64,000 nt of DNA from Acutalibacteraceae bacterium (GTDB taxonomy: Bacteria > Bacillota > Clostridia > Oscillospirales > Acutalibacteraceae): positions 15,332-79,331 of the forward strand of contig JAZSHC010000023.1 in assembly GCA_045533065.1 (NCBI GenBank), written 5' to 3'. Position numbers and translations under genes: made by a program. The number at the start of each line of letters is the position of its first letter. Position 1 is the stretch's first letter. Shown here in pieces: positions 47,967 through 64,000 of the stretch. Below the pieces are notes generated by a model. It was not told the origin of the DNA. It ran no database searches and saw only the letters and a list, made by a program, of their open reading frames with translations.

Positions 47967-50900
47967 TCAGATTCTTGAGTCGGGATCAGCGCAGCATGAG
48001 GGCTTGCCTGTGAAGAGCTTGATAATCTTCTGGAAGAATCTGAAGAATGCACCCCAGAAATTATCACGGTGACATGAGCATGAGCAGCTTGTGTCTTCAA
48101 CGGGCTTTTCGATAACAACATCGCTGTTGCCCTTATCAACGTTGCCCTGTTCGTCAACATTTACGTCATAGCTTGCATCGCCAAGACCGTCAACGCTTAC
48201 GAATACTCTGTATGAGCCGGGCTGTACGTAGAAGATTACAACGCCGTCTGACTTTGTTCTGTCATTCATGCCGGTATCAACGTAATTGCCTTCAGCATCC
48301 TTGACAAAGAGTTTAACAAGTGCATTGTTGATGAGGTTACCGTTCTGGTCCTTAACGTTTACAACAATCTGTGCAAGCTGACCGGAAATGGGTTCTTCAA
48401 GAGTCTGGCCACAACCGTTCTTACAGTTGTATACACGCTTACCGTCTGTGCCTGTTGCATAGTCGGGAGCGATTTCCTGAGCAAGCACCCAATCGTGACC
48501 TGTTGCAGGAACATTACCTGCAATGTAATAGTAACCGCAAGCACACTGATGCTTGATTCCGCCGGGTTCAGTACAGGTTGCACCTGTATTTGACTGAGTA
48601 TATGTATGCTCTGTCTGCTTGAATACGGGGCTTACTGCAATGTCCTTCTTAACAACTGAAGTGTCACCACTCCATTTTTCAAAGGTGAAGTGACCGTCTG
48701 CATTTGCTGCGGGAACAACAATCTTGCTTGTTTCGCCCTTGTAGCCTGCTTCTGTGCTGCCGTATGCATAAGTACCTGTCTGAAGAACATTGCCGTCCTT
48801 ATCGAGATAGGTTACTCTGTATACTCTGGGAATTGCCTTATACTGTGCAATGTAAGTTACGCTTGCTGTAACTTCAGGAATTTCATCTGATGCGAAGGGC
48901 TTCGCAGCTGTTGTGCCTTCAATTGCCCAACCGATGAATTCATAAGAGTTCTCGTCGTCGGAAGCTTTTGATGCAATTGCTTCAGCAGCTGCCGCTTTTG
49001 CTCTTACGTCTGCTGTTGCAGTTTCAGAGTTCATTTCAACTTCAATTGTACCGAGTCTTGTTACACCGCCGTCATCGAAGAACTTGATTGTGTATGTTGC
49101 TGCTTCTTCTTTGATAGTTTCCTTACAAACTTCACATATTGTAACATACTTGCCGTCAACAAGCTCTGTCTTTTCTGTGTGACCGTTTGCATCGGCTGTC
49201 TTCTTTGTTTCTGTGTAACCGCATTCTGCAGTACATTCGTAAGTTGTCATTTCAGGTAACAGACAGTCTGCTTCCTGTGTAACCTTACCGGTTTCCTTAA
49301 GAGTGTGGGCTGTTGCTGTATACTGAGCATAAACTACTGTTTTTGCTGTGATGTTAGTAAGTGCCTTATCCCAACCCTTGAAGGTGTAATGATTTTCATC
49401 ATCGTATGCTTTTGTGGGAGTGCCGTATGTTTCAGCATCGTAAACGGCTGTTTCGCCTGCCTTAACCTTAACGCTGCAAATACCTGCGGTACCGTTCATG
49501 AATACAACTTCGTATTCCTTCTGTTCCTTTTCGAACTTTGCATAGTATGATGCATCGCCGTCAATCTTAATCTTGCCTTCAACAGCACTTGCATTTGCAC
49601 TGTTCTTTGCCCAACCGACAAACTTGAAGGTATACTTGCTGTTTTCTGCAAAAGCGGGAGTTTCAGCAGGTTCTCTTTCGTCGCCGATAGCACCCATGAG
49701 AGTCTTAACCTCTTCATAGCCTGTGAATCCGCTTGCATCTGTATATTCATCGGGAACAAGGAAGTTAACTGTATAAATAACATCGCTTTCGGTAAACTTA
49801 GCATAAAGCTCAAGGTCACCGGGGATTGTCATGGGAAGGTTGTACTTGGTCTTGTAATCGCCGTTTTCGTCAAGTGTGTACCAACCTGCAAAGGTGTACT
49901 TCTTGGTGCCTTCCGCATTGTTTGCCTTTGTGGGAGCAGTTACGTCAGCTGCAGCGATGGTTTCACCCTTAACGCCTTCTGCCTTATCGTATTCTGCACC
50001 GTCAACATAGAAGGTAACAGTGAACTTTTCAAGTGCAGCTTCGCCTTCAATCTTCTGTGTTGCACCACAGATCTTACATGTATAAACAGTGTAACCCTTT
50101 GCGTCTGCTGTGGGTTCAACAACCTGAGTTGCTTCCCAGGTGTGAGGAACGTTTGCGTTGTCAATTTCACGGGTCTTAGGAGCGTCGTCTACAAGGATTA
50201 TTGCTTTACAAACCTTACATTTTGCTGTTTCAATACCCTTTTCCTTACATGTAGCAACCTTTGTTACAACCCATTCTTCTGTATGGCCTGTGGGCTTATA
50301 TGCTTCATCGTAATTTGCCTGAGTCGCATCTGAGCCCTGAGCAATTACAACAACATCACCGCACAGACGGCAGGTCTGAGTCTTACGTCCGGCATCAGTA
50401 CATGTAGGCTTAACTGTTACGGGGTTATAGAATTTGTGAGCGTCTTCATCAATTGCGATTACTTCTGTTATCTTGTCTCCGCAAGCTGTACATTCTTTAA
50501 CCTTTGTGCCAGTTGCAACGCAGGTAGCGGCCTTTGTAACCTTGAATTCGCCGTAGCTGTGACCCTTTGCGGGATCGAGAAGAACAACTTCTCCGTCTGC
50601 TATTACAGGAGCGCCGTTTTCATCTCTTTCAAAGTCAACAACCTCAAACCAGCCACATCTTGAACATGTATATGTGTCATATCCGTTTTCTGTACATGTA
50701 GCGTCTGTGCGTACAGCTGTGCCGAAATCATGACCGAGAACCTCGGTTTCGATGATTTCACCAATAATAGCGTTACAGTTGTAGCACTCTGTGCTTTCTA
50801 TACCGATTGTTGTACAGGTTGCATCTACCTTAACTGTTCTTGTTTCATGTGCAGCAAGAACTTCAACGTATGCAGTTGTTTTGTTGCCTGCCTTATCGGT

Positions 50901-53900
50901 AACAACAATGTGATATGCACCTGCAGTGTTGATTGTGTATGCGTTTTCAGTGAGTTCAACAGCGTTGCCGTTAAGAGTTACTGTTACGGGATTTGCATCC
51001 TCAACAACAAGCTCAACCTTTTCGCAGAATACCTCACCTGCATAGTTTGAAGAGCCAACAAGCTCAAGCTCGGGTGCTGTTGCATCATAAACATACTTGG
51101 CTGTTCTGATGTAATTGGTGTTGTTGTTCTTATCAACAATCTTGTAATATGTGATGTATTCACTACCGTCAACAAGAGCTTCGCCGTCAACCTTAAGGTC
51201 ACGTGCCTTCTGAGTTACGTTTGCATTGTAATTCTTGTAAACCTCAGGTACTGCTGCCCAGCTTCCGTAGTATCCTACAAGTGATGTCTGGATACCTGAC
51301 CAATCATAAATGCCTTCCCACATGCTCTCATTGTTTTCATAGCCATCGGGGAGTCCGTCTGCTGCAAGGGCAGTGTAAACATAAATGTTCTTAACGCCGA
51401 TGCCGTTTTCTGCAGTGTTGAAGTCTGCATTATAGTCGCCCTTATCTGTGGTTGTGATGATAAGGTCTGTTGAGGGAGCTGCATAGAAGGTTTCGGTAAT
51501 TGCATCGAAATCTGTATCGTACTTCCATGAAGTTGTTCCTACATAAGTTGTACCTGTGGGAATAACCGCATCGGTAAGAGGAGCAATTACAACTGTGCTC
51601 TTTGTCTTTTCCTTATCACAAGCACACCAGATTTCCTTTGAGCCTTCGCCTGTTGATGCCGGAACAATAACATTTCCTTTTTCGTCCTTAACTTCATCAA
51701 CTCTGTAAGTAGGAGGTGTGATTATTTCTGACATTTCAGCATTATGAAGTTTAACTTCAAAGTTTGCAAAAATCTTAATATCAGATGTTACAGGTGCTTC
51801 AAGATTGTAAGCGTCAGCGGCTGCATCTGCTTTATCGAGAGTCCATTTAATAAATTCGTTATGCTCTTCATTGCTCTGCCAACCGTCTGCAGGGTCTGAA
51901 ACAAGGTCTTTGATTCCAAGTCCGTTTTCAACCTTTACTTCATAGGTTGTAGTACCGTCATTTACTGTTACGGTGTGGAATATCGGAGCATCCTTATACT
52001 TAGCAAACAGGTTGATATCTGCTGTCACAGTCATGCCACGAACAAACTTGTGTTCTGTGCAGGGCTCAGCTGTGCAATCAGCGGGACAGTAATACCAGCC
52101 TTCAAGAGCCTTACCGTCGGGGATTGTAAGATTTACGGAAGGAACACGGATGGTTTCGCCGTAGATATACTTACTTGTTGCTACTGCAATGCTCTTGCCG
52201 TCAGCATCAACTCCGCCCACATCTGCTCTGTTTGCATACCAGTTTGCAGCATAATAGATGTAAACCGGCTTGAACTGTGCAACAAAGTAAAGTGTGCTGT
52301 CGGGCTCGCCGCCTTCACAGGTTGTGGGAACTCTCTTATCCCAACCAATGAACTGATAGTTATAGGTTTCGTCAGAAGCCTTTACTGCATTAGCTTCAGC
52401 TGCATTGACAGTTGCTTCAATCTTATCACCGTAATGATATGTTCCCTTTGCAAGCTCTGTGCCGTCATAATTCAGGAATACGAAATGGTATTCAAATCTG
52501 CCGTAGCTGAACTGGGGATAAAGTGTTACATCTCCGGTAATCTGAGTTTCTTCAGGTACGTACTTGTTACCTGCAATTGTGCCGGCAATAATCTGTTCCT
52601 CGGTCTGCTCTGCATCAGCCCAGCCGATGAATGTGTATTTACCGTCTGATGTATCGGCCTTCTTGGGAAGATAAGCAACCTTGTTCTCGTCCTCATCTTC
52701 AATGAGCCATGTGGGAAGCTTTGTGCCTACAGTTTCTCTGAAGGTTTCTGTTGTGCTTCCGTCTTTATAAGTTACGGTGTGGAATTTTTTACCGTTTTCG
52801 TAAATTGCCTTGAAGGTAACATGGTTCTCAGGTGAGAAGGCTGTAAGATCAGCTGTATCATATCTCTTGCCGTTATAGTCCCACTTACCGAAGAAGGTCT
52901 GGAGATATTCACCGTCATCGTATGTACCGTGAGGCTTAAGTGAGTCAACAGTTTCCTGAGTGATGTTTGAACCGTGGTTAACCTGAGCTGTTTTTGTAAC
53001 AAGCTCACCCTTTGCATTACGGTATTCGAAGGTTACATTGTAAGGAACTGCAACACCGTCGTTATATTTGATTTTGAAAGTCATGTTGGGAACACAGGTA
53101 TAACCGGCAAGGTTAACCTCGTTGTTATTGTAAACCCATGACTTGAATGTGTATTCTTTACCTTCCTTAGCATAAAGCATGGGGATATCATCGGGAGCTG
53201 TGATAACCTCACCGTACTTGAAGGTTTTTGTTTTTACAGCATCATTACCTGTTGTGTCAACATACTCAAATCTTACTTCGTAGCTGTTGATGAAACGTCT
53301 GAATACAGGATAGTATGATACGTCATCTCTTACAGTAAAGTCCTCAACAAGGTTAACTGCATGGTTGTTAACGTCAAAGTCAGCATCTTCCATAACAATG
53401 TGATAGTTTGTTCCGGTTGTAGGTGCTGAGTTTGCCCAGCCGATAAATTCAAAGGTGAATTCGTCTGTTGCTTCAAGAGGAATAGCTGTAGGCATATTTA
53501 CAGTATCTCTGTAAACGTATTTGCTTGTGTAGCTACCGTATGTGTTATAAACAGTTACGTCGTATTCCTTTTTGAAGGTAACGTCGTTATAAACAGGGGT
53601 AAGAATAAGATCTTCTGTGAAAACATGGTTACCGGAATAAATTTCGGTACCGTCGTAGTTTTCCCATTTACCGTTCCAGTTAGAATATGTATATGCACCG
53701 TTTACATAATCTTCTGTCTGATCTCTTTTGGGAGAAGGCCATGTTGCAATGGCTGTATTTCTGTCACCGTATTTTACTGTGAAAGACTGGATATGGCTAC
53801 CGTCAATATCATAGAATTTTACTTTGATATCTTTAGCAACCCACCATGCATAATAGGTGTTTTCAGCATCGGTTTTTGTCTTGAGCTGTTCAGAGTTAGC

Positions 53901-55127
53901 TTTGGGATCCCATTTAACACCTGCAGGATAATAAAGCTCTTTTTGGCTGTCACTGAGGTTGTTATAGGCATCAGTACTGATAGGCTGCTTGAAATCTTCT
54001 GCAAGGGTTTCCGGTGTTGCAGATGATGATTCGTCCTCAGGCTGCTTCACAGACCAGAAACCGTAAAAATCATGACCTTCCTTGATTGCTTCACCGGTAG
54101 GATAATAATCCTTTATTGACTCATCGTATTCCTTATATTCGATTGCTTTAATTTCGTTAGCAATCTCATCACCGTTGTTCATATAAATGGTTACGGGATA
54201 CAAGCTGTCAGTTGAACCAAGACCGTAAAAATACCAGTCATATTTGGGGTTTGTAAGGTTGATAGGTACTGTTATAATCTTTGAAGAACCAAGCTGTGCA
54301 CCGACATAAACTGTTTTAACATTTGAAAGCTGCATTTCAGGCTTGATTTTTACCTGCTGTGAAATTGTGCTGGTGTCGCTTGTGTAGCTATACGAACCGG
54401 AAATATAAACTTCATCGTTATCAAAAGTCATTTCATTTACGCCGGCTGCATCGGAATAAATCTTAAAAGTAGGTTCAGCGCCTAAAGGATCTACATACCA
54501 ATCAACACCGTACTGGTCAACAACATTCCATGAAAGGTCGGCAGGCGCATCAGCACCACCGATTTTATTGATTTTTACATCAGCGGACGTTGTTTTTGTT
54601 TTAATATTATCAGCATAGGGATATTTCCAGTTAGGGCAAGTTGCTGAACCAACGGTTTCTACAGCTGCATCAGACCATCCGCTTGCAGACGCATCTCTAG
54701 TATATAAACCGTCCATCAAATCGCCGCTGTCGCCTATATACAATGCGTTCCACTCTACTATTATTTCACCGGACCAAAAAGAGTCGTCTTTAACAGCGAA
54801 TTCTACCCTTGTCGGGAAACCCGGAACACCGGACAAATCCAATATAAATTCGTCGCCTTCATCAAAACCACCATTGTCACCGGATTTAAACTGGAAAACC
54901 GGGTGTTGAATTTCTGTGCTTCCTGTACCATTATCAGTTTTATAGAAAACCTTGAATTCAACAAGGTCACCGTCGCCATCTGCGGAATTGTTGATTTTAA
55001 AACCAACCTTAATAGGATAATAAGTATCAGCTGCTTCTGCCTTTGTGGGGGCAACCCATACCCAACAGGACAGTACCATGAGCACTGCCAGCATGAGTGA
55101 TAATGATTTTTTAATTTGTTTTTTCAT
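47967..55127 (-). CDS. large secreted repeat protein, 2,386 aa (Listeria-Bacteroides/InlB-B-type repeats plus Cys3-His knuckle repeats plus Cys-rich amphipathic C-terminus)
   Basis: ATG 55127 with AAGGAGG (55142..55136) and signal peptide MKKQIKKSLSLMLAVLMVLSCWVWVAPTKAEA. At least 13 repeats of about 70-80 aa end in the Y-T-F-x-G-W ... L-Y-A-K-F signature (e.g. KKYTFAGWYTLDENG...LELYAKF). Cys-rich repeats span aa 1438-1690. A prealbumin-like beta segment spans aa 2252-2325. Confidence 0.9.
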   Translation of the reverse strand: MKKQIKKSLSLMLAVLMVLSCWVWVAPTKAEAADTYYPIKVGFKINNSADGDGDLVEFKVFYKTDNGTGSTEIQHPVFQFKSGDNGGFDEGDEFILDLSGVPGFPTRVEFAVKDDSFWSGEIIVEWNALYIGDSGDLMDGLYTRDASASGWSDAAVETVGSATCPNWKYPYADNIKTKTTSADVKINKIGGADAPADLSWNVVDQYGVDWYVDPLGAEPTFKIYSDAAGVNEMTFDNDEVYISGSYSYTSDTSTISQQVKIKPEMQLSNVKTVYVGAQLGSSKIITVPINLTNPKYDWYFYGLGSTDSLYPVTIYMNNGDEIANEIKAIEYKEYDESIKDYYPTGEAIKEGHDFYGFWSVKQPEDESSSATPETLAEDFKQPISTDAYNNLSDSQKELYYPAGVKWDPKANSEQLKTKTDAENTYYAWWVAKDIKVKFYDIDGSHIQSFTVKYGDRNTAIATWPSPKRDQTEDYVNGAYTYSNWNGKWENYDGTEIYSGNHVFTEDLILTPVYNDVTFKKEYDVTVYNTYGSYTSKYVYRDTVNMPTAIPLEATDEFTFEFIGWANSAPTTGTNYHIVMEDADFDVNNHAVNLVEDFTVRDDVSYYPVFRRFINSYEVRFEYVDTTGNDAVKTKTFKYGEVITAPDDIPMLYAKEGKEYTFKSWVYNNNEVNLAGYTCVPNMTFKIKYNDGVAVPYNVTFEYRNAKGELVTKTAQVNHGSNITQETVDSLKPHGTYDDGEYLQTFFGKWDYNGKRYDTADLTAFSPENHVTFKAIYENGKKFHTVTYKDGSTTETFRETVGTKLPTWLIEDEDENKVAYLPKKADTSDGKYTFIGWADAEQTEEQIIAGTIAGNKYVPEETQITGDVTLYPQFSYGRFEYHFVFLNYDGTELAKGTYHYGDKIEATVNAAEANAVKASDETYNYQFIGWDKRVPTTCEGGEPDSTLYFVAQFKPVYIYYAANWYANRADVGGVDADGKSIAVATSKYIYGETIRVPSVNLTIPDGKALEGWYYCPADCTAEPCTEHKFVRGMTVTADINLFAKYKDAPIFHTVTVNDGTTTYEVKVENGLGIKDLVSDPADGWQSNEEHNEFIKWTLDKADAAADAYNLEAPVTSDIKIFANFEVKLHNAEMSEIITPPTYRVDEVKDEKGNVIVPASTGEGSKEIWCACDKEKTKSTVVIAPLTDAVIPTGTTYVGTTSWKYDTDFDAITETFYAAPSTDLIITTTDKGDYNADFNTAENGIGVKNIYVYTALAADGLPDGYENNESMWEGIYDWSGIQTSLVGYYGSWAAVPEVYKNYNANVTQKARDLKVDGEALVDGSEYITYYKIVDKNNNTNYIRTAKYVYDATAPELELVGSSNYAGEVFCEKVELVVEDANPVTVTLNGNAVELTENAYTINTAGAYHIVVTDKAGNKTTAYVEVLAAHETRTVKVDATCTTIGIESTECYNCNAIIGEIIETEVLGHDFGTAVRTDATCTENGYDTYTCSRCGWFEVVDFERDENGAPVIADGEVVLLDPAKGHSYGEFKVTKAATCVATGTKVKECTACGDKITEVIAIDEDAHKFYNPVTVKPTCTDAGRKTQTCRLCGDVVVIAQGSDATQANYDEAYKPTGHTEEWVVTKVATCKEKGIETAKCKVCKAIILVDDAPKTREIDNANVPHTWEATQVVEPTADAKGYTVYTCKICGATQKIEGEAALEKFTVTFYVDGAEYDKAEGVKGETIAAADVTAPTKANNAEGTKKYTFAGWYTLDENGDYKTKYNLPMTIPGDLELYAKFTESDVIYTVNFLVPDEYTDASGFTGYEEVKTLMGAIGDEREPAETPAFAENSKYTFKFVGWAKNSANASAVEGKIKIDGDASYYAKFEKEQKEYEVVFMNGTAGICSVKVKAGETAVYDAETYGTPTKAYDDENHYTFKGWDKALTNITAKTVVYAQYTATAHTLKETGKVTQEADCLLPEMTTYECTAECGYTETKKTADANGHTEKTELVDGKYVTICEVCKETIKEEAATYTIKFFDDGGVTRLGTIEVEMNSETATADVRAKAAAAEAIASKASDDENSYEFIGWAIEGTTAAKPFASDEIPEVTASVTYIAQYKAIPRVYRVTYLDKDGNVLQTGTYAYGSTEAGYKGETSKIVVPAANADGHFTFEKWSGDTSVVKKDIAVSPVFKQTEHTYTQSNTGATCTEPGGIKHQCACGYYYIAGNVPATGHDWVLAQEIAPDYATGTDGKRVYNCKNGCGQTLEEPISGQLAQIVVNVKDQNGNLINNALVKLFVKDAEGNYVDTGMNDRTKSDGVVIFYVQPGSYRVFVSVDGLGDASYDVNVDEQGNVDKGNSDVVIEKPVEDTSCSCSCHRDNFWGAFFRFFQKIIKLFTGKPSCCADPDSRI

Positions 55128-55312
55128 TAAGATTTCCTCCTTAATAAAAATTAACCGTTGTTTATTTCATGAAACGGCATTGTGCCGTGTAAACGAAATT
55201 CACTGTGATTCTCTTTTTCCTTTGAAAAACCTTGCACCCGGCCCCTGACCTGACCGTTTTTCGGCGCACTGAATCCCCAAAAGGGCATAAAGAGTCACTT
55301 TTAGTTAGTATC

Positions 55313-55342
55313 AGTATATCATTTAAAAATCAATAAAGTCAA
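55313..55342 (-). promoter_or_regulatory. sigma-A promoter (extended -10) of the 2,386-aa protein gene
   Basis: The minus strand reads TTGACT (55342..55337), 18 nt, TGaTATACT (-10 at 55318..55313). It shares the 17-nt string TTTTTAAATGATATACT with the giant-gene promoter. The leader is about 180 nt. Confidence 0.65.
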
Positions 55343-55373
55343 TAAGACTCCGTAAAAAGATTTATAATTTATT

Positions 55374-55403
55374 AAAAATTGGCTCTTTTGACGAAAAAGA
55401 GCC
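55374..55403 (-). terminator. rho-independent terminator downstream of the HAD phosphatase gene
   Basis: On the minus strand: GGCTCTTTTT, loop CGTC, AAAAGAGCC (55403..55381), followed by AATTTTTAAT. Confidence 0.65.
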
Positions 55404-55418
55404 TTGGCGTTTGTTGAA

Positions 55419-55448
55419 AATGCAGAATGCAATTCTGCACTCTGCATT
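55419..55448. repeat. solo palindrome built from the AATGCAG/AATGCAA heptamers of the intergenic element family
   Basis: AATGCAGAATGCA (55419..55431), loop ATTC, TGCACTCTGCATT (55436..55448): a 13-bp stem with 1 mismatch. The heptamers are the same as those at the outer arms of the elements at 56.2 and 59.5 kb. Confidence 0.7.
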
Positions 55449-55460
55449 CATTATCTATTT

Positions 55461-56150
55461 TTACCTGTCACCGAGTATTATACCAAGCACCTCGTTGACA
55501 TCATGGGCAATGTATTCAGCACCTGCTGCTTTCAGCTCTTCTTCATCTCTGAAGCCCCATGTGACGCCTATGCATCTGAGACCTGCGTTTTTTGCCGTCT
55601 GAACATCGACCTCACTGTCACCTATATATATAATAGTATACTCTGCAAAGCTGTTATGCTCTTTTTTACCTTTTTCTCCCCCAATTCCGAATTCATCCAT
55701 AGCCTTAAACACATTAACGGGGCTGGGCTTTCTTTCACTTTCAACAGACACACCGATTGCAACATCAATAAGACCTTCAAAATAATCCTCACAAAGTCCT
55801 GCAACTGCTTTGTGGAGCTTGTTGGATACAACAGCTGTTTTTACACCCCTTTGTTTCAGGAGTTTAAGCATATCCAAAACGCCATTATAAGGTGCAGTTA
55901 TGTCCTTCATGTGCTCAAGATAGTATTTTCTGAATACTTCAAGGCATTCTTCCTGTGTTTTGTCATCAGTACCGTCGGGGGTTGACCTTTCCATAAGCTT
56001 TACAACACCGTTGCCTATAAAGCGGCGCACCTCGTCAATTGTTCTTTCAGGAAAGCCGAAGCGCTTCAGGGCGTGGTTTACAGCAGCGTGCAAATCACCG
56101 AGGGTGTCAAGCAGCGTACCGTCAAGGTCGAATATAGCGTATTTATACAT
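55461..56150 (-). CDS. HAD-IA hydrolase, phosphoglycolate phosphatase-like
   Basis: 229 aa. Motifs: I FDLDGTLLDT, II VVSNK, III/IV KPSP...YIGDSEVDVQTAKNAG. Confidence 0.85.
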   Translation of the reverse strand: MYKYAIFDLDGTLLDTLGDLHAAVNHALKRFGFPERTIDEVRRFIGNGVVKLMERSTPDGTDDKTQEECLEVFRKYYLEHMKDITAPYNGVLDMLKLLKQRGVKTAVVSNKLHKAVAGLCEDYFEGLIDVAIGVSVESERKPSPVNVFKAMDEFGIGGEKGKKEHNSFAEYTIIYIGDSEVDVQTAKNAGLRCIGVTWGFRDEEELKAAGAEYIAHDVNEVLGIILGDR

Positions 56151-56238
56151 TTTTATCAGTCCTTTTATTTGTCATAGATTACATTATACATGTTTGCTGT
56201 TAATAAATCAAATCGATTTACAAGCAGGCTTTTTTGTT

Positions 56239-56899
56239 AAATGCAAAGTACAAAATGCAGAATGCTAAATTGCGGGGAAGCACAGTGCACAAGGTTACAG
56301 TATGCCCGCTGAATTTACTGTGCGGATAAATCCTTACCCAATAAAAATCAGCAGGCAGTAAAAATATTTGCTCAGATTTTCAATATAAGACAATAAGACG
56401 CTTACCCGTATGTAAGCCCGAAGGGCGTATGCGGTGAATGGGGCGGATATAAGGCTAAAGGAAAAACCATGCGTACAGCAAAAGCGTGCTTTTGCTTCCT
56501 TTTGCCACAATCGGCAAAAGGAAGTGCCCCAGCGGCATGAGCGCTCCGGGGATGATTGTTGCGAAATGTAACATAGTTAAGGTAAGCACCGGCTCACTTA
56601 ATCGGCAAGGATGTAAAGGTGAACCACTTAGTCGAGTGATGGGTGGGGAGTGCCCTCTGAGTCACTGCGTGACACCTCTCACAAAGGGAGAGGCAAGATG
56701 CCCGCAAAAAAGGTAATTAAATTCAGCGGGTAGATTGTATCCTTCACCACCTTGTCGGACGAAATTTTGCACTTTGCATTTTGCATTCTGCATTCAAAAA
56801 GGACGACCAACGGTCGTCCTTTTTAAGGTAAATTCAGCGGGCAGATATTACCCTTTAGTGCCAAGTCGGGCACAATTCTGCACTTTGCATTCTGCATTC
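56239..56899 (+). repeat. intergenic inverted-arm element, copy 1 (about 660 bp; extra right arm after internal hairpin)
   Basis: Left arm 56239..56325 (heptamers plus CCCGCTGAATTTACTGTGCGG). 120-nt conserved core block 56356..56475. Inner right arm 56715..56794. Hairpin 56796..56824. Second right arm 56829..56899. Confidence 0.8.
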
Positions 56900-56963
56900 T
56901 TAATTCCGCTCGCCGCAAGGCGTTACTTTCTTGAAAGAAAGTAACCAAAGAACTTTTGATTTT

Positions 56964-59369
56964 TTATCTGATTGTTCCTGTGTGCCAGATGTCTCTTGCA
57001 TAATCGTTGATTGCACGGTCAGCAGCAAAACGGCCTGCACCTGCAATGTTCATAAGTGACATTTTGTTCCAAAGGGTTCTGTCCTTCCATACCTCGTCAA
57101 TCTTCTTCTGAGCAACTCTGTAATCGGCAAAATCTGCAAGAACCATGTAAGGATCGTGGTGGATGATTGTGTTGCCGATTTCGGGGAACTGCTTTCCTGA
57201 GAAGCCTGCCTGAATGAATTCGATAACCTTGCGAAGCTCTGCATTGTTATTGAAATAGTTAATGGGCTGATAGCCTCTCTTTTTAAGATCGTTGACTTCG
57301 GGAGTTGTCATACCGAACAGGAACATGTTTTCGTCACCGACTGCTTCGTTGATTTCAACGTTTGCACCGTCAAGGGTACCGAGAGTGAGTGCGCCGTTGA
57401 TCATAAACTTCATGTTACCTGTACCGCTTGCCTCTGTACCTGCAAGGGAAATCTGCTCACTGATATCAGCGGCAGGCATAAGCACCTCTGCCATTGATAC
57501 GTTGTAATCTTCAAGATATACAACCTTGAGTCTGCCCTTCATGTCGGGGTCATTGTTGACAAGGTCAGCGAGGGCACAGATCATTTCAATGATTTTCTTT
57601 GCAACAAAGTAGCCCGATGCAGCCTTTGCACCGAAGATGTATGTGTGAGGCACATAGTCACCGTCGGGATTTTCCTTAATTTCCAGATATCTTGCAATAA
57701 TCTGAAGAGCATTCAGATGCTGACGCTTGTATTCGTGAAGTCTCTTGACCTGTACGTCGAAAATTGAGTTGGGGTCAAGAGTGATACCTGTCTTTTTCTT
57801 AACAAGAGCTGCAAGCCTCTTTTTGTTGGAAAGCTTGATTTTTTCAAGTTTTGCCAGCACTTTTTTATCGTCTGCAAACTTCTTGAGCTTAAGAAGCTCA
57901 TCTGCATCATAAACAAAGCCGTCACCGATAAGCTCAGTTACATAGGATGAAAGCTCGGGGTTTGCCTGGCAGAGCCAACGTCTGTGAGCAATACCGTTTG
58001 TTACATTCTTGAACTTGTCGGGAGTAAGGTTATAGTAATCGTTGAAAATTGTATCCTTGAGAATCTGGCTGTGAAGTGCAGAAACACCGTTTACACTGTG
58101 ACATGTTGCAACACAGAGGTTTGCCATTCTGATAACACCGTTTGATGTAACAGCCATTGCCTCAACCTTGCCTGCATCGTGGGTCATTTCCCAGATGTGA
58201 GCGCGGTAACGGTTATCAATTTCCTTAACAATCTGATAGATTCTGGGAAGGAGAGTTTTGAACAGGTCTTCAGGCCAGCATTCAAGTGCTTCCTTCATAA
58301 CTGTGTGGTTGGTGTAAGCAGTTGCTTTTGTTACAATGCTCCATGCATCGTCCCAGCCATAGCCGCATTCATCAAGAAGAATACGCATAAGCTCGGGAAT
58401 TGAAAGGGTGGGGTGAGTATCGTTGATGTGAACAGCATTCTTTTCATGGAAGTTGTCCATTGAACCGAAATGTCTCAGATGTCTTGCAACGATGTCCTGA
58501 ACGGATGCAGAAACAAGGAAGTACTGCTGCTTAAGACGAAGGCTCTTACCCTCATAGTGATTGTCGGAGGGATAGAGGATTTTGCTGATAACCTCAGCCA
58601 TTGCCTGCTGCTCCATAGCCTTCATATACTGACCCTGGTCGAAAAGCCTCATATCAAGTGAGGGAGCTTCGCTCTTCCAGAGACGGAGAATTGAAATACC
58701 CTTACCGTCCTTACCGCTGACATACATGTCATAGGGTACTGCAACGATGGTCTGAGCGTTTCTGTGTTCAACACTGTGATAGTGTGTATCCCAGATGTCA
58801 ACAATTTCACCGCCGAATTTAACTTCAACGGTATCCTTTTCTCTTGCCTTGAGCCATACCTCACCGCCGGGAAGCCAGAAGTCGGGAAGCTCTGTCTGCC
58901 AGCCGTCAACAAGCTTCTGCTTGAAAATGCCGCATTCGTAAAGAATGCTGTAGCCCATACCGTAGTAGCCCTGAGTTGCAAGACCGTCGAGGTAGCAGGC
59001 TGCAAGTCTGCCGAGGCCGCCGTTACCGAGACCTGCATCGGGTTCGCATTCAAAAAGTCTGTCAAGCTTGATGCCCATATCCTTAAGAGCATCAGCAAAG
59101 GTTTTTGTGAGATTGAGATTGTAAAGGTTATTTTTGAGAGAGCGGCCCATAAGAAATTCCATGCTGAGATAGTAAATCTTCTTCTGCTCCTCGTTGCCCT
59201 TTTCCTTTCTGAATTCACGAAGGCCGTCGTGCATAAGCTCTCTTACAATGAGAGCCACTGCTTTATAATACTGTTCGTCTGTTGCCTCTTCGGCGCTCAC
59301 ACCGAAATAATGGGAAAGCTTACCTGTGATAAGCTCCTTTGCTTGTTTCTTTGTAAGGGAATAATTCAT
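56964..59369 (-). CDS. glgP: glycogen/maltodextrin phosphorylase
   Basis: 801 aa of the GT35 family. PLP-lysine region EASGTGNMKFMINGALTLGTLDGANVEI and N-terminal GNGGLGRLAACYLDGLAT. Confidence 0.95.
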   Translation of the reverse strand: MNYSLTKKQAKELITGKLSHYFGVSAEEATDEQYYKAVALIVRELMHDGLREFRKEKGNEEQKKIYYLSMEFLMGRSLKNNLYNLNLTKTFADALKDMGIKLDRLFECEPDAGLGNGGLGRLAACYLDGLATQGYYGMGYSILYECGIFKQKLVDGWQTELPDFWLPGGEVWLKAREKDTVEVKFGGEIVDIWDTHYHSVEHRNAQTIVAVPYDMYVSGKDGKGISILRLWKSEAPSLDMRLFDQGQYMKAMEQQAMAEVISKILYPSDNHYEGKSLRLKQQYFLVSASVQDIVARHLRHFGSMDNFHEKNAVHINDTHPTLSIPELMRILLDECGYGWDDAWSIVTKATAYTNHTVMKEALECWPEDLFKTLLPRIYQIVKEIDNRYRAHIWEMTHDAGKVEAMAVTSNGVIRMANLCVATCHSVNGVSALHSQILKDTIFNDYYNLTPDKFKNVTNGIAHRRWLCQANPELSSYVTELIGDGFVYDADELLKLKKFADDKKVLAKLEKIKLSNKKRLAALVKKKTGITLDPNSIFDVQVKRLHEYKRQHLNALQIIARYLEIKENPDGDYVPHTYIFGAKAASGYFVAKKIIEMICALADLVNNDPDMKGRLKVVYLEDYNVSMAEVLMPAADISEQISLAGTEASGTGNMKFMINGALTLGTLDGANVEINEAVGDENMFLFGMTTPEVNDLKKRGYQPINYFNNNAELRKVIEFIQAGFSGKQFPEIGNTIIHHDPYMVLADFADYRVAQKKIDEVWKDRTLWNKMSLMNIAGAGRFAADRAINDYARDIWHTGTIR

Positions 59370-59538
59370 ACAAAACCTCCAATTGTATCTATATAAACCT
59401 GCGTTTTTAGCATAGTGATATGGTTATTTTATACTAAAAACAGAGAAAAATCAACTGTAATAGAGAAAATAATAGGCTTTTATTAAAATATATTCGGGTT
59501 TTTGAGTAGTTAGTAGTCAGGAGGAATGTGGAGCTTTT

Positions 59539-60063
59539 GAATGCAGAGTGCAAAATGCAAAATGCAAAATTGCGCCGAGCATAGCACTAAAGAGCACAAT
59601 CTGCCCGCTGAGTTTACTGTGCGAATAAACCCTTACCAAGTAAAAACCAGCAGGCAGTAAAAATATTTACTCAAATTTTCAATATAAGGCAATAAGACGC
59701 TTACACGTATGTAAGCCCGAAGGGCGTATGCGGTGAATGGGGCGGATATAAGGCTAAAGGAAAAACCATGCGTATGACAAAAGAGGGCGCTTTGCATACT
59801 TTGGCGCCTGACTGTGCCAAAGTATGTGCCCTAGCGGCATGAGCGCTCCGGGGAAGGTTGCAGTGAAATGGAATATAGTTAGGTAAGCACCGGCTCTCTT
59901 AATCGGCAACGATGTAAAGGTAAGTCACGGACCGTCGAGGACGCCGGTCCCTACAAATAAAATTAAACAAAGGGTTGCCGCACAGTAAACTCAGCGGGTA
60001 GATTGTACCCTTTTGCACTGAAGCTCGGCGCAATTCTGCACTTTGCATTTTGCATTCTGCATT
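59539..60063 (+). repeat. intergenic inverted-arm element, copy 2 (about 525 bp)
   Basis: Left arm 59539..59623 and right arm 59975..60063 are imperfect reverse complements over about 85 nt. The conserved 120-nt core block 59655..59774 differs from copy 1 at 4 positions by my count. Confidence 0.8.
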
Positions 60064-60091
60064 AAAAAAAGCTCCCCGAAGGGAGCTTTTT
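60064..60091 (-). terminator. rho-independent terminator of the two-gene membrane-protein operon
   Basis: On the minus strand: AAAAAAGCTCCC, loop TTCG, GGGAGCTTTTTTT, immediately after the TGA at 60094..60092. It abuts the right end of element copy 2. Confidence 0.8.
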
Positions 60092-60601
60092 TCAGATAAA
60101 GAAAATAACAAGAACACCGATAACAGCAGCAAGGAAGGTGATGCTGTATCTTTCAAGGAATGCACCCGCATAGCAGATAACTGCTCCGGGAGTGTAAAGA
60201 ATCTTCTGCAGAATGTTGCCTTTTTTGTAAACCTTTTCCATCATGTTCATGGCATCCTCAATAAGAGGGAAGCTGTTGCAGAAAAGTGAAAAGGCAAACC
60301 ATACACTTACACTTGACAAAATTGAAGCGGGAAGTGAGGACGCTCTGATAATCGCAGGGAAAATGAGAAGGAACATTATTCCGATTGCGTTCATGAAAAG
60401 AGGTACAAAGCAAAGAGCAAAGGAGCCCTGAGCAGTGGCTGTGAATTCGTGTTCAACGTGGCCGCTCATTTCGTCGTCTCTCATATATCTGTTGTCTTCA
60501 ACAACGGTTTTTGTGCATCTTAATACAATCTGTTCCCACATTGCTCTTACATAAGCGCCGGGAAAGGTGAGATATCTTATCAGAATGTAGAGAAATGTCA
60601 T
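60092..60601 (-). CDS. hypothetical polytopic membrane protein
   Basis: 169 aa with 4 predicted hydrophobic helices. Its start overlaps the upstream gene stop by 4 nt (ATGA), suggesting translational coupling. I recognise no family. Confidence 0.6.
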   Translation of the reverse strand: MTFLYILIRYLTFPGAYVRAMWEQIVLRCTKTVVEDNRYMRDDEMSGHVEHEFTATAQGSFALCFVPLFMNAIGIMFLLIFPAIIRASSLPASILSSVSVWFAFSLFCNSFPLIEDAMNMMEKVYKKGNILQKILYTPGAVICYAGAFLERYSITFLAAVIGVLVIFFI

Positions 60602-62097
60602 GCGATATCGCCTCCTTTATCCTTGAGAACTTCTTCAATTGAGATTTTGTCAGCCTTATATTTTTCAACCAGGTCGCTGATTTTATATCCGTTTGTTTCG
60701 AGCACGTTTTTCATGCCTTCATAAATCTCGGTGTCACCGTTATAAAGTCCGATAAGGGCATAAAGGTTACACTGGGCAACATTGTATGAGCCGCTGTTCA
60801 TGAATTCCTGCATTTCCTGAAGAGCAACACTGCCTTCACCCTGAAGAAGGTATGCAACTGCAAGAATCTGCTTGTAGCTCATATCACCTGTATATGCATT
60901 TTCAGCAGCCGTTTTACCGATTTCGAGCATCTTTTCAGCATCGGGAGTTTCAAGATAACGGAAATATGCCGCATAGGCAACATAGGCATTTGAATCCTGC
61001 TTGTTTATTTTAATAAGTCTGTTATAGCAGTCTTCAACAAGCTCACCGTCACCTGCCATTGCAGCAACGGAGCAGAGGGTGGGAAGGTATACCCATTCAT
61101 CACCCTTGTATTTTTTGTCCATTTCAAGAAGGGCGTTGAGACGGTCTTCAACACTGTCGCCTCTGAGTCTTTTTACCTCATAGGCAAAGTAATCTATAAA
61201 GAGGTCAGCATATTTTTTGCTGCCGTCTTCGTTGGTTTCCTCTCTGAGAGCGTCAAGCTCACCGAGAATTTTTTCATAATCCGCATCCTTGCCCGTAAAA
61301 GCAGGGGATACAATTTCCGATACCGCATAATAGGTTTCGGTGTGGAGCTCTGTTTTTTCAATTATCCTGCGGTATTTTATGTTCCATGGCATTTTAAGGT
61401 CTGTTTCACTGTAATACTGATTGATAAGCTTTGCAGCGTCAGACAGATAGCCTGTTTTTGCATAGTCTTCAATGAGGTTGTTTACCGCAGACATTGAAAC
61501 ATTTTCACCGTCAACGGATGTGAGGTATTGATAGTAGCTCTGCATTGCAGACATGATTTTGCCTTCACTGTGGTTTGAGTAACCTTCAATGAGATACATG
61601 TTTGTGTCAACGGCAGTGATTGAAGTGAAAGCAGTAGCAATGAAAACAGCAATCATGAGAATAAACATGAGAATTCCTGTTTTTCTTAAGGGATAGCGCT
61701 TCATGAAGCTTCTGCAGGTTTCACAGTAGGGATAATCCTCACCGTACTGCTTTGCTCTGGGGTTTTCTTCGCAGCAGTCGCATTTTTCTTCTTCATTTTC
61801 TTCGTCTTCAACAGGCTCTTCCTCTATATCGGTAAGCTCCTGAATCAGTTCTCCCTGTTCTGCATTTTCTGCCGCCTTATCAAGCTCCTGCTGAAACATG
61901 TCTCTGATTTCTTCAAGCTCTTCGTGAAGGTTTTTTTCTTCACTGTCGGCAACTTCTTCAGTTTCCTGAACGGTACCGTCAATATTTTCGTCTGTTACCT
62001 CTTCGGGCAAAAGTTCTTTTTCTTTTTCGTCCAAGGTTAACGCCTCCTTTTTTGAGTTTAACATTGCTATTCTATCACTGTTTTGAGCAAAAAGCAA
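60598..62097 (-). CDS. membrane protein: acidic N-terminus, Cys4 zinc-ribbon-like motif, one TM helix, TPR-like extracytoplasmic domain
   Basis: The ORF is open from 62097. The best start is probably TTG 62034 (AAAGGAGG 8 nt upstream) or ATG 62064. It contains CDCCEENPRAKQYGEDYPYCETC, then the TM helix ILMFILMIAVFIATAFTSI, then Tyr/Ala-rich helical repeats. Confidence 0.65.
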   Translation of the reverse strand: MLFAQNSDRIAMLNSKKEALTLDEKEKELLPEEVTDENIDGTVQETEEVADSEEKNLHEELEEIRDMFQQELDKAAENAEQGELIQELTDIEEEPVEDEENEEEKCDCCEENPRAKQYGEDYPYCETCRSFMKRYPLRKTGILMFILMIAVFIATAFTSITAVDTNMYLIEGYSNHSEGKIMSAMQSYYQYLTSVDGENVSMSAVNNLIEDYAKTGYLSDAAKLINQYYSETDLKMPWNIKYRRIIEKTELHTETYYAVSEIVSPAFTGKDADYEKILGELDALREETNEDGSKKYADLFIDYFAYEVKRLRGDSVEDRLNALLEMDKKYKGDEWVYLPTLCSVAAMAGDGELVEDCYNRLIKINKQDSNAYVAYAAYFRYLETPDAEKMLEIGKTAAENAYTGDMSYKQILAVAYLLQGEGSVALQEMQEFMNSGSYNVAQCNLYALIGLYNGDTEIYEGMKNVLETNGYKISDLVEKYKADKISIEEVLKDKGGDIA

Positions 62098-62140
62098 TAA
62101 TTGTCAGAGCAATTGTAGTTAAATAACTTTTATTTAACTT

Positions 62141-62800
62141 TAAATTCGCCATTCCCAATTCGCAATTCCCAATCGCGCCGAGCTACAGTGCAAAAGGGCA
62201 CAATCCACCCGCTGAATTTACTGTGCGGCAACCCTTTACCTAATAAAAATCAGCGGACAGTAAAAATATTTGCTCAAATTATCAATATAAGACAATAAGA
62301 CGCTTACCCGTATGTAAGCCCGAAGGGCGTATGCGGTGAATGGGGCGGATATAAGGCTAAAGAAAAAACCATGCGTATAGCAAAAAAGGGCGCTTTGCAT
62401 ACTTTGGCGCCTGACTGTGCCAAAGTATGTGCCCCAGCGGCATGAGCTGTCCGGGGATGGTTGCCGTGAAATGGAACATAGTGAAGGCAAGCACTTGATT
62501 GGGTGATGGATGGGTAACGCCCTCTCCGTCACTGCGTGACACCTCTCCCAAAGGGAGAGGCAAGACGCCCACAAAAAAAACAGGGATGACGAAGACGTCA
62601 CCCCTACATAATTAAACTCAGCGGGTAGATTGTACCCTTCACCACCTTGTGGGGCGCAATTTTGCACTTTGCACTTTGCATTCTGAATTTTAAAAAGAAC
62701 GACCGTTGGTCGTCCTTTTTGTAAATTCGGCGGGTAGATTGTGCCCTTTTGCACTGTAGCTCGGCGTAATTACGAATTGCGAATTACGAATTGCGAATTG
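62141..62800 (+). repeat. intergenic inverted-arm element, copy 3 (about 660 bp; outer arms use AATTCGC heptamers)
   Basis: Left arm 62141..62229. Core block 62258..62377 (3 differences from copy 1 by my count). Inner right arm about 62610..62687. Hairpin 62690..62720. Outer right arm 62722..62800, whose last bases overlap the queH stop region. Confidence 0.8.
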
Positions 62801-63392
62801 AATAAGCGCATCCGCAGTAGTTCTGCCTGTAAAGGTTGTGCTCCTTGGAAAGCTCAATTGACCTTTTGTATCCGTTTTTCTTTTTGAAATCCGAGGGCAG
62901 ATGAGAAACTCCGTATTCCTGCTGAAGCATTTCACCGATTTCGTTTATTTTTTCTGCATTTTTAAGGGGACTGATTGTGAGGGTTGTTGTGAAATAGTCA
63001 AAGCCCTTTTCCTTTGCAAGCTCTGCCGTTTTGCGAAGGCGCATTTCATAACAGGAAAAGCACCTTATACCGCCTTCCCTTTCCTTTTCCATGCCCTTGA
63101 CACAGCTGTAAAACTCATCGGGATTGAAGTCGCCCTCAATTACCGAGACCTTATGTTTGTATTCACTTTCAGCTATAAGCCTTTTTATTTCCTCAACCCT
63201 GTGAGCATACTCCTCGTGGGGATATATGTTTGGATTATAACAAAATACGGTTATGCTGAAATATTCACTCAGATACTCAAGGCAGTAACTGCTGCAGGGA
63301 GCACAGCAGGCATGCAAAAGCAAGGTAGGTACAAGTCCTGCCTTTTGATTTTCAGCAATTATTTTGTCAAGTTCTTTCTGATAGTTACGCAT
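62784..63392 (-). CDS. queH: epoxyqueuosine reductase QueH
   Basis: 202 aa, DUF208/QueH pattern: LLLHACCAPCSSY, CYNPNIYP, and NYCGCAYS near the C-terminus. Confidence 0.9.
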   Translation of the reverse strand: MRNYQKELDKIIAENQKAGLVPTLLLHACCAPCSSYCLEYLSEYFSITVFCYNPNIYPHEEYAHRVEEIKRLIAESEYKHKVSVIEGDFNPDEFYSCVKGMEKEREGGIRCFSCYEMRLRKTAELAKEKGFDYFTTTLTISPLKNAEKINEIGEMLQQEYGVSHLPSDFKKKNGYKRSIELSKEHNLYRQNYCGCAYSIRNS

Positions 63393-63438
63393 GAGGGGTA
63401 CTCCTTTTTGTTCTGACCCGTTTCTTTATCAACATCAA

Positions 63439-63464
63439 AAGCTCCCGAAAAGTTTCGGGAGCTT
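63439..63464 (-). terminator. rho-independent terminator of the upstream partial gene
   Basis: AAGCTCCCGAAA / TTTCGGGAGCTT 12-bp stem, followed on the minus strand by TTTTGATGTT, 7 nt after the stop at 63471. Confidence 0.7.
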
Positions 63465-63470
63465 CTTTGC

Positions 63471-64000
63471 TCATTTAACCTCTAAGACAAGGCTTGAAAA
63501 ATCTGCAATAATTTTTGATGCAGTTGAATCGCCGAGAGAAACAAATTCAAGGCTCTTGCTGTCTTCGTGAATCATGGGCATGTAATCGTTATCGGGAACT
63601 ATGTAACCGATCTGGTCATTTGCAAGGCCGAGAACATGAAGTGTTCTGCCTTCTGCATTTTCTGTTACGATATCCTGAAGTGAAGGATACTCAAAGTCTT
63701 CACCGCTCCAGGAGTAATCAGCTGAAAGATATCCTCCGTAAGCAATTTCCGGAGCAAGCTCACCGGGGATAATTGCAAATGCAAGGTCTTCACCGATTTC
63801 CATATAACCGACCTCAGTAACAACTGAGTATACACCGTCAACCTTTTTAACGCAGTTTTCAAAAAGACCTGCCTTACCTGCAACAACAAGCACCTGATTG
63901 TCGATGGGAAGAATAACTTCCTTATATCTGATGTTGAGAAGGGGCTGAACCTCAGCTTCTTCGGTGATTGCCATAAGGTCATTTGCAATTGCCTTACCGA
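63471..64000 (-). CDS. hypothetical protein, N-terminus outside window
   Basis: The frame stays open upstream of the ORF-track Met (in-frame codons GKAIANDL precede it up to base 63998), so this is the C-terminal 176 or more residues of a larger protein. I cannot assign a function confidently. Confidence 0.55.
   Translation of the reverse strand, partial: GKAIANDLMAITEEAEVQPLLNIRYKEVILPIDNQVLVVAGKAGLFENCVKKVDGVYSVVTEVGYMEIGEDLAFAIIPGELAPEIAYGGYLSADYSWSGEDFEYPSLQDIVTENAEGRTLHVLGLANDQIGYIVPDNDYMPMIHEDSKSLEFVSLGDSTASKIIADFSSLVLEVK

Follow-up and report, generated by a model that had tools for sequence, protein, structure and literature searches.

A 64,000-nucleotide stretch of DNA from an Acutalibacteraceae bacterium (contig JAZSHC010000023.1 of assembly GCA_045533065.1), hereafter the window, holds three copies of an intergenic element with inverted arms, which is the subject of the present analysis. 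Sequence reading and repeat finding place copies 1, 2 and 3 at 56239-56906, 59535-60068 and 62139-62805, give them lengths of 0.53-0.67 kb and confirm the single shared orientation reported in a preliminary description of the locus; repeat finding revealed no further full copy in the window. Each copy is placed between the 3' end of one gene and the promoter of the next, and the flanking genes all run on the minus strand. Regarding their identities, HAD and QueH are supported by Pfam and glgP by Pfam PF00343 on its homologues, the window glgP protein being 85-97% identical to proteins from metagenome-assembled genomes (MAGs) of Clostridia and Acutalibacteraceae (an exact look-up of the protein itself gave no record), whereas the names 'TPR' and 'membrane' given earlier to a 499-aa and a 169-aa gene have no Pfam match behind them. 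Related loci are referred to below by L numbers.

Arms, core block and insertion sites

The 13-mer TAAA(T/C)TC(A/G)GCGGG, said to occur eight times, is indeed found at eight exact occurrences in the window when searched as TAAAYTCRGCGGG, against 0.23 expected by chance (an additional one-mismatch chance match falls within glgP). The 40 nt at the centre of the core occur three times with 0 expected, and runs of TGCAWWW heptamers, confined to the arms, give nine matches against 0.19 expected. In a three-way alignment, a 120-nt block shows pairwise identities of 116/120, 117/120 and 115/120 with six variable columns, and the arms and the 3' half of the copies are 65-85% identical, in agreement with the near-identical block and far more diverged arms first described. 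The arms measure 82-106 nt (typically ~85 nt), are 78-91% complementary and follow a common plan of 4-5 tandem heptamers (consensus AATKCRN), AATTGCG, ~28 variable nt and CCCGCYGAATTTAC; the folding energy of copy 2 is -242 kcal/mol (z = -14.4).

Several details of the arms differ from what had been proposed. Copies 1 and 3 each possess two right arms instead of the single arm pair ascribed to every copy; GCGCCGAGC, given as an arm motif, is missing from the arms of copy 1, where GCGGGGAAGC is found instead; and, in copy 3, the left arm and the outer right one are made of AATTCGC-type, not of AATGCAA heptamers. The outermost arm ends are the most variable and carry several heptamer types, and the conserved motif sits at the inner arm end. 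Tandem heptamers are common between the genes of related genomes, where they belong to the CAGTAGT, CGGAATT, AGGGATT, GCATTTT/CTGCATT, AGGCAGT, GCGCATT and GCGAATT types (98 heptamer runs in 557 kb of related DNA) and, despite the coexistence of several types per genome, the two arms of each paired element observed are of identical type.

The glgP neighbourhoods of eight related Acutalibacteraceae/Clostridia assemblies were compared with that of the window. The glgP-HAD spacer is 813 nt long in the window vs 118 nt in L001/L006 and 76 nt in L007-L009, the spacer between the 169-aa gene and glgP 722 nt vs 254 nt (L007-L009) and 268 nt (L137/L138/L141), and the queH-TPR spacer 687 nt vs 85 nt (L137/L138/L141) and 24 nt (L002); at these three orthologous sites, the window elements are absent in all relatives compared. 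The junction of copy 3, a copy that splits the 3' end of queH, is readable. The queH gene of L137 ends in ...MRNQNQQSGIKVE and the window QueH in ...IRNS, the last residues and the stop being encoded by heptamers of the outer right arm, while just past the left arm the sequence resumes with the ancestral end of queH, AATT(T)AAAGTTrAATAAAAGTT, and with the TPR gene's conserved promoter. The heptamers therefore arrived with the insertion. Mapped against L137/L141, copy 3 has no target-site duplication, only a GAATT microhomology, and no direct repeats are visible at the related cassettes of L010, L086 and L115. The flanking spacers of copies 1 and 2 are unalignable and relatives have other terminators there, hence these junctions cannot be mapped. 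These comparisons show that the three copies are insertions between a gene 3' end and the next promoter.

Two further observations concern these sites. The queH 3' end has been invaded in two lineages, by CAGTAGT heptamers in L008 (1-110) and by AATTCGC heptamers in the window (62768-62805), and in both cases the heptamer repeats encode the last QueH residues and the stop codon. Besides, the contigs of L137, L138, L141, L009 and L075 end in or beside these elements, for instance ~140-250 nt after glgP; these ends fit assembly breaks at repeats, so that copy number in MAGs is probably underestimated.

Hairpin modules and mosaic composition

Next to the 120-nt block, the copies share a two-hairpin module of ~70 nt composed of AAAAGRGCGYTTTGC, a first stem P1 (10-12 bp, of variable sequence), a second stem P2 of 5 bp (GWGCC NNAGC GGCWY) and GAGCG. 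A scan of the GTDB species genomes with GTGCCNNAGCGGCATGAGC returned 117 stretches, among which ~58 sites in low-GC loci are true homologues, all in gut MAGs of Acutalibacteraceae, Clostridia or Oscillospiraceae; the remaining matches are due to chance and lie mostly in high-GC genomes. Two matches to the module motif in IMG/VR were likewise dismissed, both being chance matches in high-GC coding DNA. Thirty distinct P1 stems contain 278 Watson-Crick pairs, 7 G:T and 0 A:C. In an alignment of 33 module sequences, 396/396 cells are paired and three pairs have compensatory changes on both sides; covariation reaches 0.201 vs 0.053 in shuffles (exceeded in 0/500 shuffles), and pairing amounts to just 38-54% in slid controls. 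P2 is closed by a G.U pair in 29 sequences and by G-C in the other 4, a closure that works solely on the plus strand of the window.

A covariance model of the module retrieved the copies within the three elements (79-82 bits), a weak fourth one on the minus strand (56904-56963) and, across 519 kb of related loci, 81 others, which occur in either orientation and with several frequently in a single spacer, a density that is overestimated because these loci were chosen for carrying the module. The sequences flanking the module, upstream and downstream, form at least five subfamilies. Between co-directional genes, the module is antisense in 10 cases and sense in 3, a bias that suggests some weak strand-specific constraint.

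Regarding the core, L075 has the nearest homologue, 76-81% identical to the core and right arm of the window, and the 5' half of the 120-nt block has no detectable homologue. A distant 'type-2' core is alignable over ~160 nt in L010, L054, L055, L063, L101, L104, L105, L112 and L022, and RNAalifold predicted 37 pairs on 13 cores, 7 of them with compensatory changes. An exact 22-mer of the core had no match in the GTDB species genomes or in IMG/VR; the L075 homologue differs inside this 22-mer. The suggestion that the 120-nt block is under selection as a structured RNA thus stands in part: conserved structure exists, mainly in the 70-nt module 3' of the block and in a small in-block hairpin, but the block itself, although homologous between species, is not unusually conserved. 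Recent copying or gene conversion best explains its near-identity within the genome, better than deep selection; in the next species (L075), the block is only ~80% identical.

The alternative suggestion of modular recombination is well supported, since segments regroup along the alignment and parts also occur separately. In alignment columns 241-320, which cover the P1 hairpin region, copies 2 and 3 hardly differ and copy 1 has another stem; columns 361-400 unite copies 1 and 2; and copies 1 and 3 have columns 441-480 in common, together with the inner right arm and the terminator. As to the separate parts, glgP and queH in the window, like genes in L002 and L049, have a 3' end formed by a solo arm with a terminator behind it, heptamer-only palindromes are found at 55416-55452 of the window and in L083, and short cassettes of 195-260 nt in L086 and L115. 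The mosaic pattern is plain from the alignment; that it arose through recombination or gene conversion between copies wherever arms and modules are shared is what we infer.

The positions of all parts are given in Table 1. As side observations, the palindrome at 55416-55452 resembles cargo-less arms, and the same site in L007 is occupied by a 1.1-kb element with CAGTAGT heptamers. The 32-nt hairpin GGACCGTCGAGGACGCCGGTCCCTACAAAT of copy 2 recurs with 94% identity at L002 15405-15435, L003 8189-8219 and L004 6886-6916, where it adjoins CTGACTA heptamers, as another portable module. The terminator hairpins of copies 1 and 3 are mutually inverted although the arms around each share the same orientation. 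Further away, the large minus-strand genes with internal coding repeats at 18000-55127, including a 2386-aa open reading frame (ORF) at 47967-55127, are unrelated to the elements; the region upstream of this ORF has in L001 a homologue called as a 9952-aa product.

Table 1. Parts of the three element copies and associated features in the window
Feature	Position	Strand	Description
Copy 1 left arm	56236..56325	+	AATGCAA/AATGCAG-type heptamers (56239-56274), AATTGCGGGGAAGC, then ...GCCCGCTGAATTTACTGTGCG
Copy 1 120-nt block	56356..56475	+	holds small hairpins GCTTAC..GTAAGC and GCCCGAAGGGC
Copy 1 two-hairpin module	56477..56546	+	P1 TTCCTTTTGCC/GGCAAAAGGAA, P2 GTGCC/GGCAT, then GAGCG; covariance model 79 bits
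Copy 1 variable 3' region	56580..56711	+	56580-56627 common to copy 2; 56622-56711 common to copy 3
Copy 1 inner right arm	56714..56802	+	GGTGGTGAAGG type; TTTAA end in reverse complement
Copy 1 bidirectional intrinsic-terminator hairpin	56795..56826	both	AAAAAGGACGACC..GGTCGTCCTTTTT; separates the two right arms
Copy 1 outer right arm	56825..56906	+	on the minus strand, arm-plus-terminator 3' end of glgP
Solo degenerate two-hairpin module	56904..56963	-	directly 3' of the glgP stop; 22.8 bits, E=4e-4; related copies in L005
Copy 2 left arm	59535..59623	+	AATGCAA heptamers, GCGCCGAGC, CCCGCTGAGTTTACTGTGCG
Copy 2 120-nt block	59655..59774	+	from alignment
Copy 2 two-hairpin module	59777..59848	+	covariance model 81.5 bits
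Copy 2 small hairpin GGACCGTCGAGGACGCCGGTCC	59927..59958	+	variable region; recurs in L002, L003, L004 beside CTGACTA heptamers
Copy 2 right arm	59979..60068	+	78 Watson-Crick pairs with left arm over 91 aligned positions
Bidirectional terminator AAAAAAAGCTCCCCGAAGGGAGCTTTTTT	60064..60092	both	doubles as terminator of the 169-aa gene
Copy 3 left arm	62139..62227	+	AATTCGC/AATTCCC heptamers; pairs with outer right arm, 88% over 82 nt
Copy 3 120-nt block	62258..62377	+	from alignment
Copy 3 two-hairpin module	62380..62451	+	covariance model 78.7 bits
Copy 3 inner right arm	62609..62698	+	AATGCAA-type heptamers; 89% identical to copy 1 inner arm
Copy 3 terminator hairpin	62690..62721	both	97% reverse complement of copy 1 hairpin 56795-56826
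Copy 3 outer right arm	62721..62805	+	heptamers give the last queH codons and stop (62784-62786)
Cargo-less heptamer palindrome GAATGCAGAGTGCAGAATTGCATTCTGCATTT (minus strand)	55416..55452	-	directly 3' of the HAD gene; 14-bp hairpin

Searches of databases did not reveal a known counterpart. As stated in the preliminary description, no Rfam family is recognized: the whole window gave no match to Rfam 15 at gathering score (hence no rRNA), and at E<=1 only five weak matches were obtained over 55000-64000, none covering the arms, the 120-nt block or the module, two of which touch an element at the terminator and right-arm tip of copy 2 (60054-60168). Copy 2 had no blastn match in plasmids and phages, ORFs inside the elements had no Pfam match, and the arm motifs gave nothing in IMG/VR and only chance matches inside coding regions in JGI metagenomes. 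Neither within the elements nor nearby was a transposase, reverse transcriptase (RT) or recombinase found. Among the described RNA families and named repeats, none was found that matches them. Diversity-generating retroelements were set aside, the six variable columns of the block being mixed G/A, T/A and C/A in non-coding DNA with no RT-like ORF, as were retron, CRISPR-like and riboswitch readings, for which there is no RT, no Rfam match and no fitting repeat pattern.

Heptamer arrays at PF05635 genes

PF05635 stands for '23S rRNA intervening sequence protein', an Avd-like four-helix bundle. In L010 (17225-17769), inverted AATTCGG arrays bracket a 116-aa gene of this family ('23S_rRNA_IVP') inserted between glgD and glgA, and the same is found in L011; glgD and glgA are adjacent in L001, which has no PF05635 cassette. 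The L010 left arm aligns with the window arms over its full length, including the heptamers, AATTGCGGG, ~30 nt and CCGCC-GA-TT. As a separate observation, the glgD-glgA spacer of L001 (1229-1329), 'empty' with respect to L010, holds a small inverted pair of GCAGTAA-type heptamers, and spacers of the glgD-glgA type seem to be filled by one heptamer element or another depending on the lineage.

This association is seen across phyla. A tblastn search with the L010 protein returned 31 plasmid records, ten of which, from five phyla, were fetched (L142-L151; Treponema, Monoglobus, Nostoc, Bernardetia, Euhalothece, Planktothrix, Gloeocapsa, Chondrinema and Chlorohelix). Period-7 tandem arrays lie 0-230 nt away from the PF05635 gene in 10/10 and inverted arrays of the same unit are present on both sides in at least 8/10, with period 7 outweighing periods 5, 6, 8 and 9 at these loci. 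In 50-kb controls from two non-cyanobacterial plasmids (L152, L153), the sole long period-7 array adjoins the four-helix-bundle gene. The plasmid PF05635 genes usually stand between co-directional genes of one operon, such as hsdS/hsdR, RND (resistance-nodulation-division) adaptor/permease or helicase/methylase. A different repeat architecture, unlike heptamer arrays, was observed at L098 1950-2250 and L063 1-280 (reverse complement), where 6-8 different short hairpins precede the PF05635 gene, each followed by a GATGAAATC- or GATTTCAT-like spacer.

In Coxiella burnetii, the intervening sequence (IVS) of the 23S rRNA encodes a PF05635-family protein and has a 28-bp terminal stem cut by RNase III, with tandem GACAGAT heptamers, variable in number between strains, at the cut site (PMC4990558). 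Moreover, a heptamer-repeat RNA hairpin in the 5' untranslated region (5'-UTR) of H. influenzae hmw is cut by RNase III (PMC12721329). Nothing on inverted heptamer arms in Clostridia or on a PF05635-heptamer link was found in the literature searched beyond the description of the Coxiella IVS. A figure legend of a large CRISPR-discovery study has '23S rRNA IVP' among the domains linked to CRISPR arrays (PMC10910872), and we may speculate that heptamer arrays beside such genes were picked up there as repeat arrays. Neither the link of the heptamer arms with PF05635 and IVSs nor the lack of a target-site duplication figured in the preliminary description.

Interpretation and comparison with known systems

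The reading that we favour, to which we grant about an even chance, is that the three copies are ORF-less, mosaic, IVS-like inserted cassettes of Acutalibacteraceae and related Clostridia, in which hairpins would replace the protein gene. It is proposed because the same arm family bounds a PF05635 gene in L010, because inverted heptamer arrays flank PF05635 genes across phyla and because heptamers occur in the RNase III stem of Coxiella. According to this scenario, a cassette enters between a gene 3' end and the next promoter, the step shown by the spacer comparison, and copies would then swap segments where they share arms and modules, through recombination or gene conversion, yielding a mosaic with a locally near-identical block. 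In a transcript spanning the cassette, the arms would, by analogy, pair into a duplex of ~80 bp, and RNase III might, again by analogy only, cut this duplex so as to release the cargo RNA and to separate or insulate the flanking messages. Finally, a lone arm with its terminator, an arrangement that recurs, would serve as a gene 3' end.

Several points weigh against this interpretation, one being that RNase III cleavage is proposed solely by analogy. The window has no PF05635 gene by tblastn with the L010 protein, and its copies do not reside in rRNA, all three being located between protein-coding genes. The arm homology with the L010 cassette consists of one alignment with 45% mean column identity, and PF05635 genes in L098 and L063 have no detected heptamer arrays upstream, the side that was checked. 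In copies 1 and 3, a terminator stands between the outer arm and the remainder, therefore most minus-strand transcripts from the upstream gene would stop before both arms are made, and a consensus promoter scan revealed no plus-strand promoter inside or just upstream of these two copies. Strand signals also conflict: the G.U pairs of the module favour the plus strand, whereas the arm mismatches of copy 2 and the hairpin at 55416-55452 (-19.9 kcal/mol on the minus, sense, strand vs -14.9 on the plus strand) favour the minus strand. The counts of G.U vs A.C mismatches in the arms, 2 vs 7 in copy 2 and 3 vs 4 in copy 3, are not decisive.

Other explanations have to be weighed against the same facts. 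Inverted arms, small size, absence of coding capacity, the presence of several copies and presence/absence polymorphism with respect to related genomes would all be expected of classical miniature inverted-repeat transposable elements (MITEs), that is, deletion derivatives of DNA transposons moved in trans by a transposase recognizing terminal inverted repeats. This explanation is nevertheless improbable in our view, as no target-site duplication accompanies copy 3, with its GAATT microhomology, nor is any visible at L010, L086 and L115, and as the most variable sequences are at the outer ends with the conserved motif innermost, the opposite of repeats bound by a transposase. Furthermore, arms also occur singly beside terminators, and ~560 kb of related DNA showed no transposase gene between arms of this kind, the sole protein cargo seen there being PF05635, which is not a recombinase. 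Were the module and the arms instead separate palindromic repeats spread as single-stranded DNA hairpins by a RAYT (REP-associated tyrosine transposase)/HUH-type enzyme, as in repetitive extragenic palindromes (REPs) and bacterial interspersed mosaic elements (BIMEs), the elements would be local clusters of such repeats. The dispersal of the module (four copies in the window and those of the related loci, in both orientations), its stem pairing maintained through compensatory changes and the mosaic composition agree with this idea, and G:T without A:C in the stems also fits a strand-specific DNA hairpin. It is however unlikely given that a 350-nt core with its arms was copied as a unit three times in the window, that the order of parts is kept in L075, that neither a RAYT-like (Y1 HUH) gene nor a GTAG-type 5' motif was seen in the related loci examined and that the module density is inflated by the choice of loci.

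Of similarly low probability is that each copy is an independent plus-strand gene for a structured non-coding RNA of ~450 nt, which the arm stem would close and the terminator downstream would end, with selection keeping the block nearly identical. Covarying hairpins whose G.U pairs are workable on the plus strand only, a strong hairpin and T-run after the (inner) right arm on the plus strand in 3/3 copies, and the antisense bias of the module, which points to a transcript of its own, are consistent with such genes. Against them, a consensus scan found no consistent promoter inside the elements on either strand, the terminators work in both directions and are likewise required by the minus-strand gene upstream of each, identity of the block is no more than ~80% in the closest other species with no homologue of its 5' half, and related genomes have no copies at these sites. 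Phase-variable inversion, with the arms as recombination sites switching a promoter or terminator between neighbouring genes, is very unlikely. Inverted repeats do surround a short intergenic segment with a terminator, and the terminator hairpin of copy 3 is inverted relative to copy 1, but this hairpin is a near-perfect palindrome, so that only the loop differs; moreover, a single orientation is seen in all three copies and in the orthologous elements of L007, L008 and L009, the arms greatly exceed known inverton repeats in length and variability, and no invertase gene is near in the window. The claim that the elements lack an ORF with a ribosome-binding site had to be qualified, since a 23-24-codon ORF following AAGGAAAAACCATG lies behind AAGGA-N7-ATG in all copies, with the same stop codon in 3/3. 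That the block drives translation of a small protein from this ORF is nonetheless hardly credible, and the reading was rejected: the ATG is replaced (ACCCTACG) in L075, other subfamilies read the hairpin module in other frames or have no start codon, and the 'coding' part coincides with the P1/P2 hairpins, where substitutions preserve base pairs instead of being synonymous.

Beyond the IVS-like reading of the window copies, a broader proposal is possible but doubtful, namely that inverted tandem-heptamer arms define a widespread, unrecognized class of insertion cassettes, of which rRNA IVSs would be a special case and PF05635 the usual cargo, the window copies carrying a structured RNA excised by RNase III. 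Such cassettes might be copied via an RNA intermediate and their arrays produced by slippage, which would account for the lack of target-site duplications and for heptamer types that match yet vary.

The nature and movement of 23S rRNA IVSs and the role of the very common PF05635 'four helix bundle' proteins have been questions since the early 1990s. If a single class of elements existed, with or without a protein gene and in rRNA or between genes, IVS biology would become amenable to study outside the ribosome, empty and filled sites could be compared, as at queH, and matched inverted period-7 arrays would provide a simple genome-wide signature for members. For genome annotation, these cassettes break MAG assemblies, with several contigs ending inside, they rewrite gene 3' ends, as illustrated by the heptamer-supplied queH stop, and they might mislead repeat-based detectors such as CRISPR finders. 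With respect to the window itself, the outcome is more modest: the elements form a mosaic repeat family, lineage-specific and probably selfish. What makes them of interest is chiefly an architecture shared with PF05635/IVS cassettes, an element type that appears widespread and poorly described.

Among known systems, the REP/BIME repeats of Enterobacteria and REPINs are likewise hairpin units present many times in extragenic DNA in both orientations, forming mosaics with other short motifs, often at gene 3' ends (PMC3116915). The window units are in contrast larger (a 70-nt module and an 85-nt arm), neither a RAYT gene nor a GTAG-type motif was found with them, and they have tandem-heptamer arrays, which are not a feature of REPs. 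MITEs such as Correia/NEMIS, RUP, BOX and Nezha are also small, non-coding, multi-copy intergenic elements with inverted ends, polymorphic between strains. They may carry terminators or RNase III sites, and Correia elements are cut by RNase III. They differ from the window elements in that the latter have neither a target-site duplication (copy 3) nor an identified cognate transposase, and combine outer ends of variable tandem heptamers with a conserved motif on the inner side. Intergenic tandem repeats of 7 nt are furthermore known from cyanobacterial short tandemly repeated repetitive sequences, the TAACTGA repeat of Beggiatoa (PMC4679880) and the ATCTTTC repeat of H. influenzae hmw (PMC12721329), the latter contributing one side to a long RNA hairpin that RNase III processes; these are single direct arrays in 5'-UTRs or upstream regions, unlike the matched inverted arrays that bracket a cassette in the window.

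Finally, the 23S rRNA IVSs of Coxiella burnetii and Leptospira (PMC4990558) occupy helix 25 or 45 of the 23S rRNA, whereas the window copies are found between protein genes, have no PF05635 ORF but hairpin modules as cargo, possess arms of ~85 nt instead of a 28-bp stem and, for copies 1 and 3, include one more arm as well as a terminator inside the element; excision by RNase III is here invoked by analogy. Both nonetheless lack a transposase and a known means of mobility and are inserts bounded by complementary ends able to form a long stem. Tandem heptamers lie in the stem region of the Coxiella IVS as well, where they are cut by RNase III and vary in number between strains (PMC4990558), and its optional cargo, the PF05635 (S23p) gene, is the very one carried by the cassette of the same arm family in L010.

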